Below are positions 23,053 to 64,000 of a DNA stretch of 64,000 bases, one piece after another. The position numbers and the translations under genes were made by a program. Below the pieces are notes generated by a model. It was not told the DNA's origin. It ran no database searches and worked only from the letters and a program-made list of their open reading frames with translations. Source of the stretch: Escherichia phage phiWec187; the sequence record LC739536.1, one strand, 5' to 3'. Numbering within the stretch: position 1 is the first letter of the stretch; each line of letters starts with the position of its first letter.

Positions 23053-23166
23053 ATGTCTACAGAAATTATTTTTGGCTTATCTGTTTTTATTGCTATTGTA
23101 TCTTTTGTATGCGGTTATACACTATTTTTATTGCTGTTGTATCTTTGGTATGCTGCTCTACACTAG
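23053..23166 (+). CDS. small hydrophobic peptide (about 37 aa)
   Basis: Not in track; AAGGAA RBS then ATG; hand translation is one transmembrane-like segment. Confidence 0.25.
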   Translation: MSTEIIFGLSVFIAIVSFVCGYTLFLLLLYLWYAALH

Positions 23167-23534: not shown

Positions 23535-23610
23535 GGTTCCATAGCTCACTGACGAGAGCGCACACCTCATAAGTGTCGAGGGCAGGGATTGTAACCCTGG
23601 GGAACCACCA
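23535..23610 (+). tRNA. tRNA-Met or Ile2 (anticodon CAT)
   Basis: Hand-folded cloverleaf; anticodon loop CTCATAA; encoded CCA. Confidence 0.55.
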
Positions 23611-23641
23611 TTTAAAAGGAGGTGCTATGCATCTCCTATAT

Positions 23642-23727
23642 GCAAGTGTGGTGGAATTGGTGATACACATTGTGCTTAAAACGCAACGCTTAAATGCTTG
23701 AGGGTTCGAATCCCTCCACTTGCACCA
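23642..23727 (+). tRNA. tRNA-Leu (anticodon TAA), long variable arm
   Basis: 7-bp acceptor, loop CTTAAAA, T-loop GGTTCGAATCC, encoded CCA. Confidence 0.6.
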
Positions 23728-23743
23728 AAACCTAAAAATATCT

Positions 23744-23772
23744 TGACATTTACTTAGTTTTTTGTTATAGTT
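23744..23772 (+). promoter_or_regulatory. sigma70-like promoter within tRNA cluster
   Basis: TTGACA-N17-TATAGT, 10 nt before tRNA at 23783. Confidence 0.5.
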
Positions 23773-23782
23773 ACTATGAAAA

Positions 23783-23864
23783 CGGGGTGTATCTCACCTG
23801 ACTTCTAATCAGGCGTTAACCGAGTAATTGGAGTATGCAGGTTCGAATCCTGTCACCCCGGCCA
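23783..23864 (+). tRNA. atypical tRNA-like gene (possible anticodon TCT)
   Basis: Perfect acceptor and canonical T-arm; stem-loop CCTGA-CTTCTAA-TCAGG; D-arm region too short. Confidence 0.4.
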
Positions 23865-23882
23865 AAAAGTTTTAAAAACTAC

Positions 23883-23911
23883 TTGACAAGCAAGATAGTT
23901 TTATGTTAGAT
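23883..23911 (+). promoter_or_regulatory. sigma70-like promoter within tRNA cluster
   Basis: TTGACA-N17-TTAGAT upstream of tRNA-Ser at 23928. Confidence 0.45.
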
Positions 23912-23927
23912 TTAAAGTATGGTAACA

Positions 23928-24017
23928 GGAAGGTAGGGCGCAGCGGTGCGCAACCAGGTTTGAACCCTGGCCCATTGTAGCGATACGGTGATGGTTCGAC
24001 TCCATTATCTTCCTCCA
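23928..24017 (+). tRNA. tRNA-Ser (anticodon TGA)
   Basis: Anticodon loop TTTGAAC, long variable arm, encoded CCA. Confidence 0.6.
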
Positions 24018-24196
24018 AATTCTCTTAGGAGCTTTATGAATTATAAAACTATTGGACAGGTTGTTACCTGAGTTAAGATTGTAAATAATAAAGTTGTTTA
24101 TGAGTATTCTAATCTTCAACAATCCGAAGATGGTAAGAATATTCGTATGGTAAAAACAGAACAAAAAGATTCCGGTTGTTTTGAATAATTAAAAAC

Positions 24197-24282
24197 GGTA
24201 GATTGGTGAAATGGTAGCCACAACAGTTTGCTAAACTGTCGTCGGAAACGGCGTGTAGGTTCAAGTCCTACATCTACCGCCA
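24197..24282 (+). tRNA. tRNA-Ser (anticodon GCT)
   Basis: Anticodon loop TTGCTAA, variable-arm hairpin, T-loop GGTTCAAGTCC, CCA. Confidence 0.6.
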
Positions 24283-24416
24283 AGTTATCTTTAATGTAGC
24301 TTGTAATCTTACTTTAGCAGAGTAAACTTTCGGCAGATGGTGGCAGCCATTTTACCGATACCCCAATACTTCATAGCTAAGTGCCGCAAACACTGGCTAT
24401 TTTAAAGATAATTTAT

Positions 24417-24492
24417 ACATCGTTAGCTTAGTTGGTAGAGCAAGGTGCTTTTAACTCCAAGGTCGAAGGTTCGAATCCTTCACGATGTACCA
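24417..24492 (+). tRNA. tRNA-Lys (anticodon TTT), tentative
   Basis: D-arm GCTTAGTTGGTAGAGC; loop CTTTTAA with one stem mismatch; CCA. Confidence 0.5.
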
Positions 24493-24497
24493 AACAC

Positions 24498-24584
24498 GTA
24501 GGTATCGCATAGCGGCAATTGCTGGAGACTGTAAATCTCCTGCCCTTCGGGGCTTCGTTGGTTCGAGTCCAACTACCTGCACCA
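24498..24584 (+). tRNA. tRNA-Tyr (anticodon GTA)
   Basis: Anticodon arm GGAGA-CTGTAAA-TCTCC; variable-arm hairpin; CCA. Confidence 0.65.
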
Positions 24585-24591
24585 AATTAAA

Positions 24592-24676
24592 GATGGATTG
24601 GCCTAGTGGTTGGGCGACGGACTGTTAATCCGTGAACGAAAGTTCTAGCAAGGTTCAAATCCTTGATCCATCGCCA
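24592..24676 (+). tRNA. tRNA with anticodon GTT (Asn) and unusually long variable arm
   Basis: Anticodon arm ACGGA-CTGTTAA-TCCGT; 15-nt variable hairpin; T-loop GGTTCAAATCC; CCA. Confidence 0.5.
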
Positions 24677-24680
24677 AATA

Positions 24681-24749
24681 GTGCTTGTAGAGTTAATAGA
24701 AACCTCTAGAATTTTCTAGAATTGTAGGTATCAAATCCTACCAAGCAAA
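24681..24749 (+). ncRNA. degenerate tRNA-like element
   Basis: 6-bp acceptor-like pairing and T-arm-like hairpin but anticodon loop of 6 or 8 nt and no CCA. Confidence 0.25.
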
Positions 24750-24755
24750 TATTTT

Positions 24756-24830
24756 GCTCCTATCGTATAACGGCTATTACGGTTGCCTTGTAAGCAACTT
24801 ATCAGGGTTCGAGTCCTTGTGGGAGCACCA
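24756..24830 (+). tRNA. tRNA-Thr (anticodon TGT)
   Basis: Anticodon arm GTTGC-CTTGTAA-GCAAC; T-loop GGGTTCGAGTCC; CCA. Confidence 0.65.
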
Positions 24831-24852
24831 ATTTAACTCTAAAGGAGTGTAT

Positions 24853-25176
24853 GTGACAGAAAAAGAGTTAGAGAAATATTTTAATATCAATGTTTTCGAT
24901 GGCTTTGATGATATTGAAGATGTTGAAAGATATTATGAAGTAGAGTTAGATAAGGATAACATTGTAATTCTTTCTGCCACTTACGATTGTGCATATTATG
25001 AAGGCGAATCTCACGTTTATTTCTATGATATGAAAACATCTTTGTTTTATGAAGTACACGCATATCATTGTTCTTGCTATGGCTTAGAAGGTCAGTGGGA
25101 ACCTGAAGAAATAGGTGATTTGGACTTTACTATTGCATATCTAAACAGACGTGGTTCATCTACTATTTTAAAATAA
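24853..25176 (+). CDS. hypothetical protein inside tRNA cluster (GTG start)
   Basis: Track start 24754 overlaps tRNA-Thr; AAGGAG at 24842-24847 then GTG at 24853. Confidence 0.4.
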   Translation: MTEKELEKYFNINVFDGFDDIEDVERYYEVELDKDNIVILSATYDCAYYEGESHVYFYDMKTSLFYEVHAYHCSCYGLEGQWEPEEIGDLDFTIAYLNRRGSSTILK

Positions 25177-25190
25177 ATATCAAAAGCCTC

Positions 25191-25220
25191 TTGACAAAGG
25201 GGCTAATAATATGTTAGAGT
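25191..25220 (+). promoter_or_regulatory. sigma70-like promoter within tRNA cluster
   Basis: TTGACA-N17/18-TAGAGT upstream of tRNA-Gly at 25232. Confidence 0.45.
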
Positions 25221-25231
25221 AATATTGTTAA

Positions 25232-25306
25232 GCGGGTATAGTGTTAATGGTAGCATATGAGGTTTCCACCCTCCAGGTGCAGGTTCAAGTCCTGTTACTC
25301 GCTCCA
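25232..25306 (+). tRNA. tRNA-Gly (anticodon TCC)
   Basis: Anticodon loop TTTCCAC; T-loop GGTTCAAGTCC; CCA. Confidence 0.6.
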
Positions 25307-25737
25307 AGATTATTTAAATGGAATCGCTAGAGAAAATTTCTCTTTTCGCTCATGGTTTTCTCCTTCAAACTCTAGCGGTTCTTTTTAAGTGATTTTTTAG
25401 TTTATTGGAGATTCACTTCCTTAGTGTGAGCTAAAATCGAGGAGCCATCGAACTGTCTGATTAATGATTTGCGAATCATTATAGTTTTAAGACCCCGGTA
25501 GTTTTATGGTGTACCTCTTGAATGTGAATGATGACGGGTTTATGGTTATCCTGGTCGTTAAATATCCAAAAACCTATGTTCCCCTTGAGGGCTTGCGCAG
25601 GTAATGCCAATAAGTCCTGCATTTTCATTTAAAAGAGAATTTATAATGGAAAAAGATGAACTTAAGTATGCTAAGCCTCTGGCTTCTGCTGCACGAAAAG
25701 CAGTTCGTCACTTTGTGGTAACACTGAAGTAATTTAT

Positions 25738-25812
25738 TGGAGATTAGCCTAGTGGGAAGGCAACGGCCTTTGAAGTCGTGATGACTAGGTTCGATTCCTA
25801 GATCTCCAGCCA
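25738..25812 (+). tRNA. tRNA-Gln (anticodon TTG)
   Basis: Anticodon arm ACGGC-CTTTGAA-GTCGT; T-loop GGTTCGATTCC; CCA. Confidence 0.65.
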
Positions 25813-25819
25813 AGATTTA

Positions 25820-25895
25820 CAGTGCGTAGCGCAGTTGGTAGCGTGGGAGCCTTGGACGCTTCAGGTCGCAGGTTCGAGTCCTGCCGCACTGACCA
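25820..25895 (+). tRNA. tRNA-Pro (anticodon TGG)
   Basis: C1:G72 acceptor; anticodon loop CTTGGAC; CCA. Confidence 0.65.
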
Positions 25896-25900
25896 AATTT

Positions 25901-25975
25901 GCAGAGATAGCTGAGACGGATTAGTGCTACCCTGAAAAGGTAGAAAGGATGGATCGTTACCATCTCTCTGCACCA
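25901..25975 (+). tRNA. tRNA-Phe (anticodon GAA)
   Basis: Anticodon arm CTACC-CTGAAAA-GGTAG; CCA. Confidence 0.65.
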
Positions 25976-26052
25976 AATAACACCATCCAAGGAGTAGACT
26001 TGGTTAACTGTCAATAGCACATTGAGGCTTCTTACAGTGGTGTACTTATTAT

Positions 26053-26137
26053 GGCTAAGTGGTGGAATGGTATACACGATACGCTTAGAACGTATTGCCC
26101 CAAGGGATTGTGAGTTCGAGTCTCACCTTAGCTACCA
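26053..26137 (+). tRNA. tRNA-Leu (anticodon TAG), long variable arm
   Basis: Anticodon arm ATACG-CTTAGAA-CGTAT; T-loop GAGTTCGAGTCTC; CCA. Confidence 0.65.
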
Positions 26138-26152
26138 AATTATTACAGATTG

Positions 26153-26231
26153 TGCGGGATAGAGGAGTCTGGTCGTCCTCGCCAGTTTCATATGCTGGAG
26201 ATCATCGGTTCGAATCCGATTTCCGCCTCCA
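26153..26231 (+). tRNA. tRNA with anticodon CAT (Met or Ile2), mismatched first acceptor pair
   Basis: Anticodon arm CCAGT-TTCATAT-GCTGG; T-loop GGTTCGAATCC; CCA; 1:72 pair U-C. Confidence 0.5.
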
Positions 26232-26289
26232 ATAAATACCTCCCTTCTGGTGTAATGATTAAATTACATTGACACTTCAAGGAACTCAT

Positions 26290-26372
26290 AGCCGGGTAGA
26301 TTTAAAAGAGTATGGTACTCAATATGGCTCCAAACCATAGATCAGGGGGTTCGATTCCTCACCTTGCTGCCA
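26290..26372 (+). tRNA. atypical tRNA-like gene, possible tRNA-Trp (anticodon CCA)
   Basis: Anticodon arm TATGG-CTCCAAA-CCATA; T-loop GGGTTCGATTCC; CCA; D region too long. Confidence 0.35.
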
Positions 26373-26377
26373 ATTAT

Positions 26378-55591: not shown

Positions 55592-58005
55592 TGGCGAATT
55601 TTCCAACATATCCTGCTACGACACTAGAACAAGGTGTTGATCTGGTTATATTCTCGTCTAACCAGATGCATGATGTTATTAATGGGGATGCTACAGCAAC
55701 TGTAGAAACCGAAACAGGTTTAATACCTACACTGCGTAAAGCACTTGTTGATAACTTCTTCTTTAAGAGTCCTGTTGCTTGGTCAGCAGGATCAACTGAA
55801 ACTGTATTTAACCAGTTACGTTATTTTGAAAACGGTATCTTGAGTGGGTACTATTATGCCCCATCTGCCACTACTGCGAACCCTGTACCTATGCAGGGCA
55901 CACCTGTAGGGGACAGTAACTGGACTCTGTACGCTCTTAAAACTGAACAGTTAGCTTCAGATGTGTATCCTTGGTATTTTAAAGGTGCTACAGGATATGA
56001 AACAGAAATCAGTCCTCCTTATATCTTTGATAATGCTATTGTCACCATTAACGGTGTAATTCAGATTCAAGGTGAAGCATTTACTATCAAAGATAGTAAA
56101 ATTATTCTGGCAGAACCATTAGGTTTAGATCCGTCTACTGGTCTACCTAACAAATTGTTTGCTTTTATTGGTAAAACAACAGCTTCTACTTCTTACGTAG
56201 AGAAAAACCTTTTGTCATCTACTACTGGTGCAGCAATGGTTGGTCTTCCATCTGGAGGCAACCTGTTACAAGCTCAATACTTTGTAACGCCTGAGCAGTT
56301 TGGTGCAATTGGTGATGGAGTTACCGATGATACTCAAGCAATTTTAAAAACTATCACTTTCGCTAACACGAATAACATTCAAGTACGTGCAGATAAGAAT
56401 TATAGATTCACAAGCTCAATTGCTATGTCTGGTATTCGTTGGTATGGTGGTACATTCACTGGTAACGGTGGAACAATGATTTCTACTGTGTCCTGTTGGA
56501 TGGAAAACGTTCGCTTTGAAAAATGTTATGTTAAGATGTTAGGTGGTGATTGCCGATTCTATCGTAATATCTTCTCCAACGCAACATCTACAGCAGCATT
56601 CTTAATGCAAGCAATGACAAGTGAAGGTACGTTGGACTTCAGTTACAACGAAATGTATGGTTGTAAATATGCGATCCTGCAACAAGGTACTGGAGAAGTA
56701 ATGACCTACGGGCGTTACTCTAACAACTATATTCACGATATCAAAGGTGATGCTATTGAACTTAACGTAGTTCAAAAACACTACACTGAAGGTTTGATTA
56801 TCGAGAATAACCACATTGCTAACGTAGATGCTTCTGGACAAGGTGCAAACTGGGGTATTGGTATTGGTGTAGCAGGTAGTGGCCCATATGGTGTTGATGT
56901 TCCTGATTCACAATATGTACGTAATTTCAGTATCGTTGGGAATAGGGTTTACAATTGCCGTCAATGTTTACACGTTGAAATGGGTAAAAACTTCACAATA
57001 CGTGATAATGAAGTTTATCCTAACACAGCAGTTTCAACAGGTACAGGTTTAACTACTTGTGGTGTTGCATTATACGGATGCCAAGATTTTGAAGTTGATG
57101 GTTTAACTGGTTATCTGCTCAATGATCCGTCTGTTTCAACACGTATGGTCTTTATTGACTGGGGTGTTAACAGTGGAAGATATGCGGGGCCACCAATTAA
57201 CTTTACAATTAAGAATTTGGATATTCCAGAATCTTCAATTGAGATTGCAACATCTGGATCAGATGCCTGGGAAAACTCTACAATTGTTAGTAATATCAAT
57301 TGTAATATTTTTAAATGGCGTGGGCTACCATCTAGCTCTACCTTTAATAATATTCGTTGCCGTAGTATTGACTTTATTGGTCAACACGGAAGCGGAGAAG
57401 GAAGTGGTGGCGGTTTCTATACTCGCAGCCAATTCACGTATATGAAGTGGGTAGGATGTACAGCACTTAGCGGAGATGAAACAACAGTTTCTTTTGCTAA
57501 AATCTACACTGATCGTTGCGATCAGGTTGGAAATAACTTTGGTGTTCCAACTGCTGTTGATGGTACAGGTCATCGTGGGCCAGTTTTAACTACTATTTCT
57601 GAACAATATTTTACAGCTTATGATGAATTCCCAGGTGGGCGTGAATTCCCTACTGGAACAGTTATTCATTGTGCAAGCGGTAAAAAACATGTTGTTACAG
57701 TAGGTGGTGCTTTCTTTAGTGACAACGAGAAAATAAAAGCAACTGTTACAGGTCAAACCTATCTACAGTCTAATGCTTTAAACTGGGCTAGTAATGGCTA
57801 CGCTAAAGCAGCAGGTACTAAGATTGTTATTCCAGGTGCAGGTGCAAATGGCGGCGATCTTGTGACAACTATAGCACGTGCTACATATGTGACAAATAGT
57901 TTGTACACAATAGATATTGCAGATCCAATTGTAACACCTACAGCAGAGAATACACAAATTAAAGCTCTGAATCCTGTTACTTTTGTTACTGTCAATAATG
58001 CTTAA
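55591..58005 (+). CDS. tailspike with pectate-lyase-like beta-helix domain
   Basis: FGAIGDGVTDDTQAILKTI is the signature of right-handed beta-helix glycanases in tailspikes. Confidence 0.55.
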   Translation: MANFPTYPATTLEQGVDLVIFSSNQMHDVINGDATATVETETGLIPTLRKALVDNFFFKSPVAWSAGSTETVFNQLRYFENGILSGYYYAPSATTANPVPMQGTPVGDSNWTLYALKTEQLASDVYPWYFKGATGYETEISPPYIFDNAIVTINGVIQIQGEAFTIKDSKIILAEPLGLDPSTGLPNKLFAFIGKTTASTSYVEKNLLSSTTGAAMVGLPSGGNLLQAQYFVTPEQFGAIGDGVTDDTQAILKTITFANTNNIQVRADKNYRFTSSIAMSGIRWYGGTFTGNGGTMISTVSCWMENVRFEKCYVKMLGGDCRFYRNIFSNATSTAAFLMQAMTSEGTLDFSYNEMYGCKYAILQQGTGEVMTYGRYSNNYIHDIKGDAIELNVVQKHYTEGLIIENNHIANVDASGQGANWGIGIGVAGSGPYGVDVPDSQYVRNFSIVGNRVYNCRQCLHVEMGKNFTIRDNEVYPNTAVSTGTGLTTCGVALYGCQDFEVDGLTGYLLNDPSVSTRMVFIDWGVNSGRYAGPPINFTIKNLDIPESSIEIATSGSDAWENSTIVSNINCNIFKWRGLPSSSTFNNIRCRSIDFIGQHGSGEGSGGGFYTRSQFTYMKWVGCTALSGDETTVSFAKIYTDRCDQVGNNFGVPTAVDGTGHRGPVLTTISEQYFTAYDEFPGGREFPTGTVIHCASGKKHVVTVGGAFFSDNEKIKATVTGQTYLQSNALNWASNGYAKAAGTKIVIPGAGANGGDLVTTIARATYVTNSLYTIDIADPIVTPTAENTQIKALNPVTFVTVNNA

Positions 58006-58008
58006 TTA

Positions 58009-58032
58009 AAAAGGGGCGAAAGCCCCTTTATA
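58009..58032 (+). terminator. hairpin terminator after tailspike gene
   Basis: AAAAAGGGGCGAAAGCCCCTTTAT; same sequence as the 8881-8900 hairpin on the opposite strand. Confidence 0.45.
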
Positions 58033-58046
58033 AAAGGAGTAGTAAA

Positions 58047-60008
58047 GTGATTTTAACACGTCCAAATAGTGCCATTGCAGACATGGTAGAGTCTCGCTAT
58101 AGAAAGCGTAGAAGTTTTGCAAGTGGTTTTACCTTAAGAGATGCTCGTGAAGCATTGCTCTTTGAAACTGACGGTAACTACTATCAGTGGAAAGGTTCTC
58201 TACCTAAAGTTGTACCTGCTAACTCTACTCCTACATCTACTGGAGGGATTTCAGATACAGCTTGGAAAAATGTGGGTAATGCAGATGACATTGCTCAAAT
58301 AGAATCAGAATTAGATGCTATTGAAGCTGAAATTGAAGATCTTAGAGAATCCATTCCAGAGGCTGGTAAATCAGCTTACCAGATTGCCGTAGACAATGGT
58401 TTCCAAGGTACTGAGACAGAGTGGTTGGCTTCTTTAAAAGGTGATCCAGGTGCTCCATTAAAGCTACTAGGGACGCTATCTAATACCAACCAATTACCTA
58501 CAACTGGAAACAATGCAGGGGATGCATGGATTGTAGGCGAGAATATGTATGCTTGGGATGGTACTGCTTGGAGAAAAGTAAACTCACAGGGGCCAGAAGG
58601 TAAATCTGCTTATGAAGTATGGCTTGCAGCAGGAAACGAAGGTACAGAACTAGATTATCTTGCCGCAATTAAAGGTGATAAAGGGGAGCCTGGCCCAGAG
58701 GGGCCACAAGGTGTGCCAGGTAATAATGCTAATGGTTTTGATTACCAAGGCGCAGCTAATTCCGTTTCAGATCTTCCTTCTGCATCTCCTGGAAACACAT
58801 CTCAAGCATGGAGTATTGGTACATATCTATACGTGTCAAACGGTGTAGAATGGATCAATATGGGCGCTATAGTGGGGCCAAAAGGAGATAAAGGCGACAA
58901 AGGAGATAAGGGTAACACTGGTGATTCAGCTTATCAAGTCTGGTTAAATGCTGGTAACGTTGGTACTATTGACGAATATATTGCCTCTCTGAAAGGAGAA
59001 AAAGGTGATAAGGGAGACAAGGGTGATCAAGGTGAACAGGGTATACAAGGCTTGACGGGGCCAACTGGTGCAGGGTTGACCATTATTGACATTCTGACTA
59101 GCACTTCTGAACTACCACAAACTGGAGAAGATGGCGATGGTTATCTGATCAATAATGAACTTTGGGTCTGGTTGCAAGGAGCCACAGAGTGGACAAATGT
59201 TGGTCGTTTAGCTGGTACTCCAATCACTGCAAAAGGACACGTTGCGTCTGCAAGTGCACTTCCTCCTACAGCCAATTACGGTGATGCTTATCTGACGGAA
59301 GATACAGGTCATCTTTACATTTACACCTATGATGAACAAACTCAAACTGCTGAATATGTAGATATGGGTAGTTTGAAAGGTGATAAGGGTGAAAAAGGTG
59401 ACGCTGGTACTAACGGTACAGACGGTGCAACTTGGATTGTTAAAACAACAGATCCAATCTCTAGTGATGGTAAACAAGGTGATTATGCCTTTAATATCTC
59501 CACTGGCGAGGTGTTCTTAAAAACATCTGCAACTATCTGGACTTCTCAAGGTACACTACCTAGTATCACAGATGCACCTAGTGATGGTAAGACTTATGCT
59601 CGTAAAGATGGAGCATGGGAAGAACTCACTAATTCTGTAGATGGTCAAGATATAGTTCCAACAAAAGTAACAACTAATTTTATAGAGGTTACAGCATATA
59701 CTAACAATTCTGTTACAGGGGACTGGACACCTCCAGGAACACATAACATGAATGTGTTGAATCTTACTGGTAACTCTACTATAAAAGCATGGCCTGGTGT
59801 CGAAGATAGCACAAAACCTAAACCATTCTCTGCAATAGTTTATCTTATCCAAGATGCCACTGGAGGTCGTACTGTTACTTTAGATCCATCTTACAAAGTA
59901 ATTGGTTCCAGTGATATTAATACAGATCCTAACGGAGTAACAATACTACAACTAACATATTGTGGTGTTGGCGATTACGTGGATGCTATTGTTGCTAAAC
60001 GCACATAA
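58047..60008 (+). CDS. tail fibre with collagen-like and fibre-repeat modules
   Basis: Gly-X-Y runs (GDKGDKGDKGNTG, GEKGDKGDKGDQGEQG) alternate with three repeats of a GKSAYQ...WL...LKGD module. Confidence 0.55.
   Translation: MILTRPNSAIADMVESRYRKRRSFASGFTLRDAREALLFETDGNYYQWKGSLPKVVPANSTPTSTGGISDTAWKNVGNADDIAQIESELDAIEAEIEDLRESIPEAGKSAYQIAVDNGFQGTETEWLASLKGDPGAPLKLLGTLSNTNQLPTTGNNAGDAWIVGENMYAWDGTAWRKVNSQGPEGKSAYEVWLAAGNEGTELDYLAAIKGDKGEPGPEGPQGVPGNNANGFDYQGAANSVSDLPSASPGNTSQAWSIGTYLYVSNGVEWINMGAIVGPKGDKGDKGDKGNTGDSAYQVWLNAGNVGTIDEYIASLKGEKGDKGDKGDQGEQGIQGLTGPTGAGLTIIDILTSTSELPQTGEDGDGYLINNELWVWLQGATEWTNVGRLAGTPITAKGHVASASALPPTANYGDAYLTEDTGHLYIYTYDEQTQTAEYVDMGSLKGDKGEKGDAGTNGTDGATWIVKTTDPISSDGKQGDYAFNISTGEVFLKTSATIWTSQGTLPSITDAPSDGKTYARKDGAWEELTNSVDGQDIVPTKVTTNFIEVTAYTNNSVTGDWTPPGTHNMNVLNLTGNSTIKAWPGVEDSTKPKPFSAIVYLIQDATGGRTVTLDPSYKVIGSSDINTDPNGVTILQLTYCGVGDYVDAIVAKRT
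58880..59420 (+). repeat. collagen-like Gly-X-Y coding repeats
   Basis: Reiterated AAAGG(A/T)GA(T/A)AAGGG units at about 58881, 58990 and 59377. Confidence 0.5.
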
Positions 60009-60009
60009 T

Positions 60010-60035
60010 CAAAGCCCCTTCTGGGGCTTATTATT
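60010..60035 (+). terminator. hairpin terminator after collagen-like fibre gene
   Basis: AGCCCC-TTCT-GGGGCT then TATTATTT. Confidence 0.45.
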
Positions 60036-60047
60036 TAAGGAGATTAA

Positions 60048-62867
60048 ATGTATCCTATTCCTTTATTTATGTCAACAACATCAGCTTCAGTAGTAACAGC
60101 TACATCTATAACTACTTCCTCTATTGGTATTGCAATAGTTGGTGGTAAAAAACAACTGACATACACAGTTACACCGGAAGATGGTGCATTATTTGATATA
60201 GCTTTTTCATCTTCAGATAATACCAAAATGGTTATAGATAATAGTGGTATGATGGAGTTTGTTGCCGAAGGTGGTTTTGATGCAATAATGACAGCTAAAA
60301 ATAATTTAGGTGCTGTCTTAACTGATCAATCTGGTGGTTATGCTTCAGAATTAAGTGTGTACACTGAAAGTCTATCGGCTATGGATGTAGGCACTACTCA
60401 ACAGTTGGTTGCTACAATCAGTCCAGAAGGTGCTAAAGACCTTCCAGATATGGTAATTACATACACCACAACAGATCCAGAAGTAGCTACTGTAAGCCCT
60501 ACAGGGTTAATAACTGCTCTTAAAGATGGCGGTTGCCGTATAGGTTGTACTGCAACGTATCAAGGAACAGTTGTGGCCTCTGATAGGTCTTATTTAGGTG
60601 TTAATGCTATTCCTGTTATTTCTAATGTAACAGCCGTGGCAAACAGTTATGGAGACGTTCGTGTTGCTTGGGATGTAACTGATCCGCTAGACGGTGATAC
60701 TTATACTGTAGAAGTATTAGATTTAAGTAATAATAGTGTTCAGTGGACTACAACAACCACGAATACTTACGCTTACTTTGATATCTCTGACTCTATTCCT
60801 CTTTATGGGTTTGCTCCAACATACCTTAAAATTAGCGTTAAGAGCACCAAAGCAGCAGCCGTTATCTTTAATAACTCAATAGCTACAGATGATTCGTTCA
60901 TTAAAGAAGTTATTGTCTTTGCTGGACAAGATAACGTAAATGCACACTTTACAGAACTATCTGGTGCAAATAAAGCAGCAATGAGTAGCACAACAGCCCG
61001 TAATGCATATGCCACGCAACGTGGTTTAGCAAATGCTGAAGTTCTTCCGTTAAATACAGCTTCTGGATCATCAGCAGCAGATAAATATGCAGATGATAAA
61101 GCCGGAACAGGAACACCAGACAACTACTGGTATGATCTGGATAACACAGCAGATGGGCCATGCTTAACTAACTTTATCACTAAAGTCACACCTTATGCAA
61201 GTAAGGTTAAAGCCATTATTTGGGGACAAGGTGAAAATGATGCTGTATCAGCATCTTCGACTGTTGCAGGTAGGTACAGTAACACTACACGTTACCATGA
61301 TGCTACGATAGCCATCTTTGATAAGATGCGTACAATAGTTCCTGCTTCTCAAGCAAAAATTGTTTGGCAGATCCTAGGACGTTCTTATTTATATGGTGTA
61401 GAAGTTAATGGTGTGGATTGGCAGAAGTACAGAAATGTACAAAGAACCATCTCTACAGCACGTGATGATGTTATCATTGGTTCTTGGGTAGATGGTGCTG
61501 AACGTTACAGTGGTTATGTTTATGAAGAAGGTATTGATGGTCGTATCCATTATATTTCTTCTGTATACCAAACAGCAGCTACAAAACTTGCTAAATCAGC
61601 AGCAGACGGTACAGACTTAACATCAACGTCACCTGTTTGGGTTGATATGGCTGTTCCAACTGGAGCAACAGCTACTTCCCAATCTAATCAAGATACAATT
61701 TTAGCATGGGATGCTCAAGGCTATAGTAAACACTACTTCCGTAATATTAACGTCTTAACCGCATCTGTATTAACTGAACAAACGCTTAATACGAACAGTT
61801 ATACGTTTACCTATGCAGATCAAGTAGCACAATATGGCTTTGCAGCAGGAACTACTATATTTGATGTTGCATATTATGACGAAGCAAATGATGTGTTATC
61901 TCCTTTAGTACGTTTTAATGTTAACGTTACAGCAGGAACCGTAGAAGATAAACCTGTAGTGATGGATTATGATTTAACACAAGAAACTCTTCCATCAGAT
62001 GTTAAGGTTAATGGTGGGAACTCTTTTGCTCGTACTTCTGGAGATACACTTGTAGCCACTAACACCTTGGTTGCTCCGTTGGAGTATATTGGTACTACCC
62101 CTGTAGGTAGACGTGTAACAGCTAACACAGCTACACAAATTTTTGTCAACAACGCCTTAACAAGTGCAAGCCCGTGGGTAAAGACCAACTTAACTGTTGC
62201 AGCTTCATCTGATAACTCTCCGGTTGGAACTACTGCTAATGTATTCAAATTAACTCCGACTACAACCTCTGGTAGTCATATCTTAACTGCAACATATACT
62301 AACGCGTACAACATATCTGCCGGACGTAACTGGTCTGCCTCTGTTTTCTTGAAAGCGAACGGGATTACTAAGGCCAAACTAAGATTAAAAGCAGGAACTG
62401 AAGTTAATGAGGGTACTTTTGATTTAGCAGCAGGTACATTCACAGGAAGTGAAGCTAATATTATATCTATGGGCAACGGTTGGTATCGTGCTATTCTGCA
62501 TAAAACAGGGATAGCCAAACAGTCCTCCATAAGTTTTGAAATAATTGCCTTGGATGCAACTGGTGCGGAGATTTTCGCTGGAGATGGTACTAGTAACCTT
62601 GCAGTTTGGTTGCCACAGCTTGAAGGTGCTTCTACAGGAGAAACATCAAAAGCTGGATCGCCTTATGTCTGCACATATCCTGGAAATTTAGGAGGAGTAT
62701 CCTTCACTATACCAAGGAACGGACATACTGGTGTGGATGTTTACTATTCCAACGGAGACGTTGTTCGTGACGTATTCTCTGGTACGGCATCTACTTGGAC
62801 AATAAACTACTCCAGCTTGTACGATTGGGGATCAGTCTTTATTACAGGTTTGAAATATTACGACTAA
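60048..62867 (+). CDS. tail fibre / receptor-binding protein with Ig-like domains
   Basis: 939 aa; two Big_2-like segments in N-terminal third; Thr/Ser-rich; terminator downstream. Confidence 0.5.
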   Translation: MYPIPLFMSTTSASVVTATSITTSSIGIAIVGGKKQLTYTVTPEDGALFDIAFSSSDNTKMVIDNSGMMEFVAEGGFDAIMTAKNNLGAVLTDQSGGYASELSVYTESLSAMDVGTTQQLVATISPEGAKDLPDMVITYTTTDPEVATVSPTGLITALKDGGCRIGCTATYQGTVVASDRSYLGVNAIPVISNVTAVANSYGDVRVAWDVTDPLDGDTYTVEVLDLSNNSVQWTTTTTNTYAYFDISDSIPLYGFAPTYLKISVKSTKAAAVIFNNSIATDDSFIKEVIVFAGQDNVNAHFTELSGANKAAMSSTTARNAYATQRGLANAEVLPLNTASGSSAADKYADDKAGTGTPDNYWYDLDNTADGPCLTNFITKVTPYASKVKAIIWGQGENDAVSASSTVAGRYSNTTRYHDATIAIFDKMRTIVPASQAKIVWQILGRSYLYGVEVNGVDWQKYRNVQRTISTARDDVIIGSWVDGAERYSGYVYEEGIDGRIHYISSVYQTAATKLAKSAADGTDLTSTSPVWVDMAVPTGATATSQSNQDTILAWDAQGYSKHYFRNINVLTASVLTEQTLNTNSYTFTYADQVAQYGFAAGTTIFDVAYYDEANDVLSPLVRFNVNVTAGTVEDKPVVMDYDLTQETLPSDVKVNGGNSFARTSGDTLVATNTLVAPLEYIGTTPVGRRVTANTATQIFVNNALTSASPWVKTNLTVAASSDNSPVGTTANVFKLTPTTTSGSHILTATYTNAYNISAGRNWSASVFLKANGITKAKLRLKAGTEVNEGTFDLAAGTFTGSEANIISMGNGWYRAILHKTGIAKQSSISFEIIALDATGAEIFAGDGTSNLAVWLPQLEGASTGETSKAGSPYVCTYPGNLGGVSFTIPRNGHTGVDVYYSNGDVVRDVFSGTASTWTINYSSLYDWGSVFITGLKYYD

Positions 62868-62869
62868 TA

Positions 62870-62900
62870 AAAAAGGAGCCATTAGGCTCCTTTTCTTTTA
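62870..62900 (+). terminator. bidirectional terminator between convergent genes
   Basis: GGAGCC-ATTA-GGCTCC flanked by A-run and TTTTCTTTT. Confidence 0.55.
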
Positions 62901-62902
62901 TC

Positions 62903-63334
62903 TTAATCAGTGAAAATTACGCTCACATCTTCTTTAGAGAAGAGTTTATGATCTTCACCTTTTGTCTCAAGAGTTTCATACAGGTTAAGAAGTTCTGAAA
63001 CATCTTTCTCTACCAGTTTCTTCAATGTTGCAATTTTCTGTTTGCGATTCTTAATACGTTCAGCTACAACCTTACGTTGGTATCCGGCAGTACGATAACC
63101 TGAGAAAGTTACACCAGTAAGACTTGCAGTTACAGGATCGTAGTGACGTTCAATCTGAAATTTATTAAAAGGTACAGCGTCATCACGAATAATCTTACCG
63201 CCATTACTTACTTGACGAAGACCAGTAACTTGCTCAAGTCGTGCCATAGAAATCTTTGGAGACAGACCAGAATCCAGGTTCATACCGTTGTTAATCAGTG
63301 CTTTCAGGGTGATTTTGCTGTTCAGTGTACTCAT
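62903..63334 (-). CDS. hypothetical protein
   Basis: 143 aa; GGAGGA RBS 8 nt before ATG at 63334. Confidence 0.45.
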   Translation of the reverse strand: MSTLNSKITLKALINNGMNLDSGLSPKISMARLEQVTGLRQVSNGGKIIRDDAVPFNKFQIERHYDPVTASLTGVTFSGYRTAGYQRKVVAERIKNRKQKIATLKKLVEKDVSELLNLYETLETKGEDHKLFSKEDVSVIFTD

Positions 63335-64000
63335 TTAGTCGTTCCTCCGCTTGCTTAAAAATATTTACATCGGCTTCACAGCCTAAGTATTCTCTACCTG
63401 TTAAAAGTGCCGCAACTTGTGTTGTTGCACTTCCAGAGAAGAAGTCTAAGACTACATCTCCTTCGTTGGTGTGTATATTAATAAGGTCACAAAACAAAGT
63501 CAAGTGTTTTTGTGTTGGATGAAAACGATCTGCTCCTTGATAGATAGGATACTCGAACACACCCTTATGGTAGGAAGCATTGAAGGTTGGCTTCGAACCT
63601 TTAACACAAACAATAGCCATCTCTTTAGCGTTACTAAGGTAGTTAACACCACTGTTGATGGGTACAGGGTTTGTTTTAATCCATTCAATAGTACGGAACA
63701 TACGAAAACCAAGCGGTTCAAGGATTTCACGTAGCTCCTGGATCTTCCAGATATCATACCAAACTATACAAGTACCACCTTTTCTAAGCACCCTGTAGGC
63801 TTCTTTGAATACTTCTTTAAAGTAAGGAATATCTACAACATCCCAATCACCAAAGTTGTAAGATACACGGAATCTATCCGTATCTTTTCCAGTCGGCTCT
63901 CCAGATTGAAAATTTGTGTCACGAGAAATAGCATATGGTGGGTCAGTAAGAATCAAATCTACACTATTGCTTTCGAGGGTTTGCAGGTAGTTTAACGCGG
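63291..64000 (-). CDS. DNA amino-methyltransferase (DPPY motif), 5' end beyond window
   Basis: Motif IV DPPY near N-terminus and motif I LDFFSGSATT; frame stays open upstream of the track start to position 64000. Confidence 0.75.
   Translation of the reverse strand, partial: ALNYLQTLESNSVDLILTDPPYAISRDTNFQSGEPTGKDTDRFRVSYNFGDWDVVDIPYFKEVFKEAYRVLRKGGTCIVWYDIWKIQELREILEPLGFRMFRTIEWIKTNPVPINSGVNYLSNAKEMAIVCVKGSKPTFNASYHKGVFEYPIYQGADRFHPTQKHLTLFCDLINIHTNEGDVVLDFFSGSATTQVAALLTGREYLGCEADVNIFKQAEERLNEYTEQQNHPESTD

Follow-up and report, generated by a model that had tools for sequence, protein, structure and literature searches.

A predicted CATG methylase of Justusliebigvirus phages encoded beside a probable remnant of an IceA1/NlaIII-type endonuclease

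The stretch of 64,000 nucleotides of Escherichia phage phiWec187 analyzed here (LC739536.1), referred to below as the window, ends within a minus-strand gene for a DNA methyltransferase, which raises the question of what sequence the enzyme modifies and what the modification does for the phage. The initial annotation had regarded the gene as a likely anti-restriction methylase and left its specificity aside. The role that we infer agrees with this idea but is narrower. The window is part of a Justusliebigvirus (phi92-like) genome and the methylase is the orthologue of phi92 gp155. In our best explanation, to which we assign a probability of roughly 0.65, gp155 is a CATG N6-adenine methylase that comes from a disarmed IceA1/NlaIII-type restriction-modification system, and the product of the adjoining gene, gp154, is what remains of the nuclease. 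The coordinates of the two genes and their elements are collected in Table 1.

The minus-strand frame from 63998 to 63291 consists of 235 codons, and its translation, ALNYLQTLESNSVDLILTDPPY...VLDFFSGSATT...PESTD*, contains no internal stop. As described in the initial annotation, the frame is open to position 64000, and the coordinate of 63291 given for it is exact, being the last base of the stop codon; the N-terminal reading and the downstream LDFFSGSATT also match our own translation. The gene is indeed cut by the window edge, although this is trivial, with eight codons affected. Extension past 64000, which had been suggested as a way to locate the start, led to the start codon in the relative PaulScherrer. 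Its orthologue bas60_0039 (98.4% nucleotide identity) has 243 codons, with MSEFVNNT directly before ALNYLQ, and is preceded by a GAAGGAG ribosome-binding site and a hairpin terminator. A database protein of 243 amino acids (P0001) is 100% identical to the part encoded in the window. Taken together, the PaulScherrer start and this identity indicate that the window holds residues 9–243 and that 22 nt of coding sequence lie beyond 64000.

Table 1. Positions of the methylase gene, its partner gene and their elements in the window (CDS, coding sequence; AdoMet, S-adenosylmethionine)
Feature	Position	Strand	Remarks
Methyltransferase CDS	63291-64000	minus	residues 9-243 of 243 plus 2 nt of codon 8; TAA stop 63291-63293
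Motif IV, DPPY (catalytic motif of amino-methyltransferases)	63933-63944	minus	residues 27-30; aligns with the DPPY of M1.HpyAVI
Motif I, FFSGSATT (FxGxG, AdoMet binding)	63420-63443	minus	residues 194-201
Central region, presumed target-recognition region	63507-63686	minus	residues 113-172, EWIKTNPVPINS ... RFHPTQK; best conserved part of the methylase family
gp154-like CDS	62903-63334	minus	143 codons (143 amino acids); phi92 gp154 'hypothetical', PHROG 20244 'unknown function'; overlaps the methylase 3' end by 44 nt
GGAGGA ribosome-binding site of gp154	63343-63348	minus	8 nt before the ATG, inside the methylase CDS (GCAAGCGGAGGAACGACTAA-ATG)
gp154 residues 9-94	63053-63310	minus	homologous to the N-terminal, non-catalytic half of IceA1/NlaIII-type endonucleases; winged-helix-like fold
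gp154 long single helix, residues 83-125	62960-63088	minus	in the place of the HNH nuclease half (AlphaFold model)
Bidirectional hairpin terminator	62871-62894	both	AAAAGGAGCC-ATTA-GGCTCCTTTT; between the tail-fibre operon (+) and the cassette (-)

By family and by fold, the product is a small single-domain beta-class amino-methyltransferase of 243 residues, the class already proposed in the initial annotation. PF01555 (N6_N4_Mtase) matches over its full length (profile positions 1–221 of 221; E 1.6e-30; 107.2 bits against a cut-off of 26.7), PHROG 67 'DNA methyltransferase' matches with an E-value of 9e-56, and the top model in PADLOC is a type II methylase (E 7e-46). Motif I lies C-terminal to motif IV, with DPPY in the N-terminal and FxGxG in the C-terminal part, which corresponds to the circular permutation of the beta class. 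The full-length AlphaFold model has a predicted local distance difference test score (pLDDT) of 81.7, and Foldseek retrieved only beta-class enzymes with it, including CcrM, M1.HpyAVI, M.BceJIV, M.RsrI, M.MboIIA, and M.PvuII, with a probability of 1.0. The sole weak stretch of the model is the loop after DPPY (residues 33–62; window 63837–63926), where the pLDDT is about 40 and yet residues D49, R50, F51, R52, F57, G58, and W60 are invariant in the family; the loop is probably ordered only upon contact with DNA. Among solved structures, the nearest by sequence is M1.HpyAVI from Helicobacter pylori (PDB 5hek/5hfj; E 1e-28 for 5hek), which aligns from end to end. It is likewise a minimal, single-domain beta-class N6-adenine methyltransferase of about 230–240 amino acids with DPPY near the N-terminus and FxGxG near the C-terminus, and the likeness extends to the long post-DPPY loop that has low confidence in the phage model. 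The two enzymes differ in that their identity is about 26–28% in the structural alignment and that the phage family pairs with CATG-type nucleases. The target of M1.HpyAVI is GAGG. The presence of DPPY rather than SPPY or SPPF in motif IV points to N6-adenine. The top sequence relatives are adenine enzymes as well, but N4-cytosine enzymes also match structurally. From these features we infer N6-adenine chemistry for the phage enzyme.

A protein search of 5.8 billion sequences returned thousands of relatives of the methylase. Forty-two of them, with identities as low as 52%, were aligned, and the alignment proved unusually uniform (mean column identity 64%). With this family alignment as the query, a scan of prokaryotes with one genome per species, in which a single-protein query found nothing, yielded 74 bacterial or archaeal methylase loci whose enzymes are 45–57% identical to that of the phage. 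At 32 of the 74 loci, the immediate downstream neighbor on the same strand is a PF05315 (ICEA) gene, in most cases no more than 50 nt away, and the four ICEA neighbors that were checked against Pfam scored 99–367 bits with a cut-off of 24. This is one likeness of the phage family to the NlaIII and IceA1-M.HpyI systems. A methylase homologue of 57% identity followed by a PF05315 gene was also found on five metagenome contigs of 140–382 kb, presumably bacterial, and 16 viral contigs carry an adjacent ICEA gene, with both gene orders represented. The nuclease-less bacterial loci have no other recurrent neighbor (a Campylobacterales trio shares only a metallophosphoesterase), and there is no recurrent second methylase among the 103 genes flanking the ICEA-positive loci, which are unrelated housekeeping genes. 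Given that ICEA is the sole recurrent partner and that no second methylase accompanies it, the two genes form a type II cassette that is complete in itself, and protection from the nuclease must fall to this methylase. Loci with such a two-gene cassette include those of Burkholderia lata (L045) and Methanoflexus (L008).

The identity of the partner bears directly on the target site. According to two reports, IceA1 is an isoschizomer of NlaIII that recognizes CATG (PMC2816704, citing Xu et al. 2002; PMC4202330), and NlaIII is blocked by adenine methylation of CATG (bioRxiv 10.1101/2022.07.20.500824), which is the very modification, C(m6A)TG, predicted for the phage enzyme. The known systems differ from the phage cassette in two respects. 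M.HpyI (hpyIM), with which IceA1 is classically paired, has been described as a larger, separate methylase, and in the Campylobacter jejuni ST-677 cluster hpyIM and a second adenine methylase stand next to IceA1 (PMC4202330); moreover, the phage nuclease is reduced to its N-terminal half. Conservation within the methylase family is highest in the middle of the protein. When compared with 48 nuclease-linked homologues, the phage enzyme is 57% identical over residues 101–172, versus 51% in the N-terminal part and 45% in the C-terminal part, and 27 positions within residues 101–172 are at least 95% conserved. The target-recognition region of beta-class enzymes sits centrally, as these residues do here. 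Because the family pairs with IceA1/NlaIII-type endonucleases and its central region is conserved, we predict C(m6A)TG as the product of the phage methylase, a prediction based on association and conservation rather than on a measurement. Alternatively, gp155 could be a generic orphan anti-restriction methylase with another specificity, such as GAGG like M1.HpyAVI or GANTC like CcrM, and the bacterial link would then be irrelevant to the phage copy. This would fit with the other sites recognized by the closest solved structures, with an identity of 45–57% to the nuclease-linked homologues, and with the many homologues that are solitary. We nevertheless consider it unlikely, given the uniformity of the family and its most conserved central region, PF05315 as the only recurrent partner, the piece of nuclease that still adjoins the phage copy, and an outlier tetramer in the genome that is CATG, not GAGG or GANTC.

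This piece is encoded by gp154, a partner gene absent from the initial annotation, which is an endonuclease remnant. Pfam, NCBIfam, and PADLOC gave no match to gp154. Its AlphaFold model (pLDDT 94.3) consists of a small alpha/beta domain followed by a helix of 43 residues, and a Foldseek search against viral models retrieved helix-turn-helix proteins and the 'ICEA1' of the giant virus CeV-01B (probability 0.98). A word-indexed protein search found four close matches, whereas an exhaustive profile search of 1.84 billion representative proteins gave 32, almost all of 100–143 amino acids. Among the latter is a full ICEA nuclease, P0214 (206 amino acids, PF05315, with complete HNH and Cys4 motifs; E 1.3e-5), which found itself alone when used as the query in the word-indexed search. 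By BLASTP, gp154 and P0214 are 37% identical over 76 residues (E 1e-10). A profile-profile comparison (hhalign) of 27 gp154-like proteins with 23 ICEA nucleases gave a probability of 97.2% and an E-value of 3.8e-11, aligning gp154 residues 17–94 with nuclease residues 55–137, and a hidden Markov model (HMM) of gp154 run against all 4,113 open reading frames (ORFs) of the bacterial loci matched ICEA ORFs only. The invariants of the HNH half, D-H...N...C..C...C.GC, which lie C-terminal to the aligned part, have no counterpart in the gp154 alignments. The BLASTP, profile-profile, HMM, motif, and fold results together identify gp154 as the N-terminal half of an NlaIII-type nuclease without the catalytic half. 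The homology to the endonuclease N-terminal half is shown by these comparisons; no solved structure exists for IceA1, NlaIII, or gp154 itself. The gp154 protein probably binds DNA, and the long helix in its model may serve as a dimerization element.

The remnant is maintained beside the methylase. A gp154-like gene overlaps the methylase 3' end at every viral-contig locus whose methylase is at least 63% identical (L082, L083, L085-L088), and none was found in the bacterial methylase loci. On two metagenomic phage contigs with a 66% identical methylase, which also carry ribonucleotide reductase and thymidylate synthase genes, an overlapping ORF of 128–131 amino acids follows that is 33–39% identical to gp154. 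The alignment of 27 homologues has six invariant residues. The 55 cultured-phage records with the methylase are also those with gp154; the sole addition is a distant homologue in Pseudoalteromonas phage J2-1. The conservation across phages suggests that gp154 is in use and not decaying. The J2-1 homologue (L165; MF988720.1 112975-113388) is 33% identical and has no adjacent methylase; a 'putative HNH endonuclease' is encoded two genes upstream. The contig that encodes P0214 (L169 5255-6621; Logan SRR25621644; 47 kb, phage-like) carries a methylase of 46% identity together with the ICEA nuclease gene, with a 4-nt overlap, and its other contents include gyrase/topoisomerase genes, a DEAD helicase gene, and many small ORFs. 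As the N-terminal domain of P0214 is the closest known relative of gp154, this pair is a plausible intermediate.

A co-oriented PF05315 gene next to the methylase would place the phage enzyme in a working system. What adjoins it in the phage is only a nuclease remnant without HNH, which makes the phage gene a probable descendant of an IceA1/NlaIII-type system and not a member of a functioning one, and the methylase is an orphan with no accompanying active nuclease gene. With a helix in place of the HNH half, the cassette amounts to a disarmed system that would retain modification without restriction. Some GenBank records instead name gp155 'type III restriction-modification system methylation subunit', and on some viral contigs the methylase does stand beside a complete ICEA gene, so that gp155 could conceivably be a type III Mod subunit or belong to an active restriction-modification system of the phage. 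This seems scarcely credible. A protein of 243 residues with a single domain is at odds with a Mod subunit, Mod structures match weakly and over part of the length (Foldseek rank 43), and the PADLOC type III model scores an E-value of 4e-12 versus 7e-46 for type II; there is no Res gene or HNH-bearing ORF in the neighborhood, and gp154 is devoid of every HNH and Cys4 motif. The type III label was rejected for gp155 on the basis of the best PADLOC matches, which are type II, and of the lack of a Res-like ORF nearby.

In the explanation that we favor, the ancestor of the cassette would have been a two-gene type II system with a member of this family as its sole methylase and an IceA1/NlaIII-type HNH nuclease. 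Methylase and gp154 would be made from a leftward operon, with translational coupling through the 44-nt overlap. Using AdoMet, the methylase would modify phage DNA at the adenine of CATG during replication, and progeny DNA would then enter the next host shielded from cleavage by NlaIII/IceA1-type enzymes. Both the protection from restriction and the CATG specificity are predictions. Phage orphan methyltransferases such as T4 Dam and P1 Dmt are comparable in being phage-borne methylases without an active nuclease; they are presumed to pre-empt host restriction and to have originated from bacterial restriction-modification systems. The cassette differs from them in that a piece of the nuclease is still attached, conserved, and apparently under selection, leaving the origin visible, and in that the predicted target site of gp155 is strongly under-represented in the genome. 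Further phage orphan methylases have been reviewed by Murphy et al. (2013), a review that we cite by way of PMC12210895.

The under-representation was assessed with a second-order Markov model for the 136 strand-symmetric tetranucleotides and with 100 simulations. CATG occurs 89 times in the window, whereas 220 occurrences are expected (observed/expected ratio, O/E, 0.40), which makes it the most depleted tetranucleotide (rank 1/136), and the simulations gave a mean of 219 with a standard deviation of 13 and a minimum of 177. The next most depleted tetranucleotide in the window is CTAG, at 0.62. Over 114 kb, comprising the window and 50 kb of PaulScherrer sequence beyond it, the O/E of CATG is 0.49, and in 100 kb of phAPEC8, which has no cassette, it is 0.81 (rank 9). 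Four metagenomic phage loci with the cassette have a pooled CATG O/E of 0.53 (rank 1 of 16 palindromes), and one of these loci has 2 sites versus 22 expected. In our view, the deficit is independent evidence of the importance of CATG to the lineage and not a simple outcome of the protection model. A methylase that co-occurs with a two-fold deficit of its predicted site could reflect layered evasion or a cost of methylation. An explanation of the CATG sites as start-codon contexts was rejected, as just 3 of the 89 are at ORF starts. Some further compositional features were noted. Palindromic hexamers with a CATG core are almost absent, the 64 kb containing 0 CCATGG, 1 GCATGC, 4 ACATGT, and 5 TCATGA, and no CATG is present in the last 2.3 kb of the window, the cassette included (observations on 57688–64000 and on the whole window). 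The outliers in phAPEC8 are instead GTAC (0.35), GGCC (0.40), and CCGG (0.45), with GTAC at 0.79 in the window, and GGCC is very low (0.19) in the replication region of PaulScherrer.

The same statistics bear on a Dam-like GATC methylase, as the BASEL annotation has it, with a role in replication, packaging, or evasion of mismatch repair. The product name 'Dam-like N6-adenine methyltransferase' in GenBank, a PDB relative labeled 'DpnA', and Staphylococcus phage homologues annotated as dpnA speak for it. However, the O/E of GATC in the window is 0.94, as expected by chance, and E. coli hosts already methylate GATC. The partners of the family are CATG-type nucleases, not DpnII- or MboI-type ones. 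PF01555 is the only Pfam match of the methylase, the Dam-type families (PF02086/PF05869) are absent from its Pfam and NCBIfam matches, and faint PF02086 tags belong to two distant homologues, not to the methylase itself. A GATC specificity is accordingly very improbable, and the 'Dam-like' label of gp155 was rejected because no Dam family appears in Pfam or NCBIfam.

The deficit also enters into a regulatory reading, in which methylase and gp154 form a writer-reader pair: the methylase would mark CATG, a winged-helix dimer of gp154 would read the mark to time transcription, replication, or packaging, and the sites left after depletion would be functional ones that are kept. The winged-helix-like fold of gp154, typical of transcription regulators, and its long helix are in line with this, as are the conservation of gp154 in phages (27 homologues, six invariant residues), the J2-1 homologue without an adjacent methylase, and a CATG deficit that is hard to explain by protection alone. 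On the other hand, the 89 remaining sites do not obviously cluster at gene starts (3/89) or in particular regions, and the bacterial ancestry is plainly defensive. We hold a regulatory pair to be improbable.

Several observations weigh against a CATG methylase derived from a disarmed IceA1/NlaIII-type system. As for the chemistry, DPPY favors N6-adenine, and N4-cytosine is still compatible. The argument for the specificity is associative: the phage enzyme is just 45–57% identical to its nuclease-linked homologues, no nuclease is adjacent to about half of the bacterial homologues or to most of the viral ones, and the characterized members of PF05315 are NlaIII and IceA1 alone, both of which recognize CATG. 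Loci with solitary, nuclease-less homologues are also poor in CATG (0.57–0.75), and a methyl-protected phage should not need to lose CATG at all, so the deficit fits the model loosely and is only partly explained by it. On the host side, NlaIII-type systems are not established in E. coli: the search for ICEA among 72,556 plasmids gave one weak match, and none of 5,426 complete E. coli genomes contained a copy of the cassette detectable as DNA. No methylation or digestion data for Justusliebigvirus phages were found in the searchable literature, where papers on retron Eco2 and on defense in enterohemorrhagic E. coli mention the subfamily and do not cover its methylation, and the modification paper on the Durham collection does not cover the Justusliebigvirus phage Paula. 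Finally, the BASEL study found phi92-like phages to be 'exceptionally susceptible' to all six systems tested, EcoKI, EcoCFT_I, EcoRI, EcoRV, EcoCFT_II, and EcoP1_I (PMC8594841). Susceptibility to all six means that any protection must be narrow. To our knowledge, none of the recognition sites of these systems contains CATG, and for this reason the susceptibility is compatible with protection at CATG.

As for gp154 itself, it may shield sites or poison an enzyme, read the methyl mark, or have a regulatory role. A tentative extension, which we regard as possible and less than even, is that gp154 is a phage counter-defense or epigenetic factor, that is, a restriction endonuclease stripped to its target-recognition domain. 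A dimeric winged-helix gp154 would bind CATG in the unmethylated, hemi-methylated, or methylated state and would cover the sites on injected or newly made DNA until the co-translated methylase acts; alternatively, it would poison host NlaIII-type enzymes or read the methyl mark. If this were true, methylase and nuclease remnant would be a conserved functional unit in several large-phage lineages and no decaying restriction-modification system. Such proteins might belong to an unrecognized class of DNA-binding anti-restriction or reader proteins, and the half that is retained would indicate which half of NlaIII and IceA1 probably recognizes DNA. Controller C proteins and the winged-helix domain of R.DpnI offer a comparison, since gp154 is likewise a small helix-turn-helix or winged-helix-like protein and lies inside an operon derived from a restriction-modification system. 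In contrast to C proteins, with which it has no sequence similarity, gp154 derives from a nuclease and not from a regulator.

The CATG methylase proposed here has a narrow distribution among cultured phages. The 1.2 kb around the methylase are 98–99% identical to about 55 Justusliebigvirus records (Stephanstirmvirinae; phi92, PaulScherrer/Bas60, alia, Antha, and others), and among cultured phages the enzyme is confined to this genus, with 55 records at least 95% identical and the next best at 47%. The sister genus Phapecoctavirus (phAPEC8) lacks the methylase. As a gene call, gp155 is ordinary, since about 55 GenBank records already list a methylase here. The names given to it there include 'methyltransferase', 'adenine-specific methyltransferase', and 'hypothetical protein' in addition to the Dam-like and type III labels discussed above, and at least five public product names are therefore in circulation, some of them wrong. 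Beyond the annotations, the CATG specificity, the NlaIII/IceA1-type ancestry, and the conserved nuclease remnant appear to be new; none of the three was found in the searchable literature, the coverage of which excludes REBASE and several key papers, so this is not proof that they are unpublished. CATG methylation and NlaIII resistance would be a cheap prediction in a genus much used in phage-therapy and BASEL-type studies, and the locus would be a clear example of how a phage captures a restriction-modification system and disarms it, with a non-catalytic nuclease domain kept as a separate conserved protein. Four unannotated records of about 146.4 kb listed as 'Campylobacter phage' (MG065656, MG065639, MG065645, and MG065689) encode a methylase and a gp154 that are 99% identical in amino acid sequence to those of E. 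coli Justusliebigvirus, and their host assignment looks doubtful.

The cassette, about 1.15 kb in length, is located where a rightward tail-fibre operon and a leftward replication operon meet. Two near-identical hairpins, AAGGAGCC-TAAT/TAAC-GGCTCCTTTT with a TAAY loop, flank it; the first is at 62871–62892 and the second copy is upstream of the methylase, about 20–40 nt beyond 64000 (L001 6242-6261), and the motif was not found elsewhere in the 64-kb window. The equivalent junction of phAPEC8, which runs from the conserved end of the tail gene to the orthologue of bas60_0040 (62% identical), has one terminator and no cassette. The cassette thus looks like a moron-type insertion specific to Justusliebigvirus. 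In the neighboring tail-fibre operon, the ORF at 58047–60008 (+) contains collagen-like Gly-X-Y runs (GDKGDKGDKGNTGD, GEKGDKGDKGDQGEQGIQGLTGPTG) and the PaulScherrer annotation calls it a lateral tail fibre with a type I collagen domain. Farther away, the window carries 15 tRNA genes at 23535–26453 (+), specific for Met (two), Leu (two), Ser (two), Lys, Tyr, Asn, Thr, Gly, Gln, Pro, Phe, and Ile, and two repeats of a 41-bp unit lie just upstream of this cluster, at 23084–23165.

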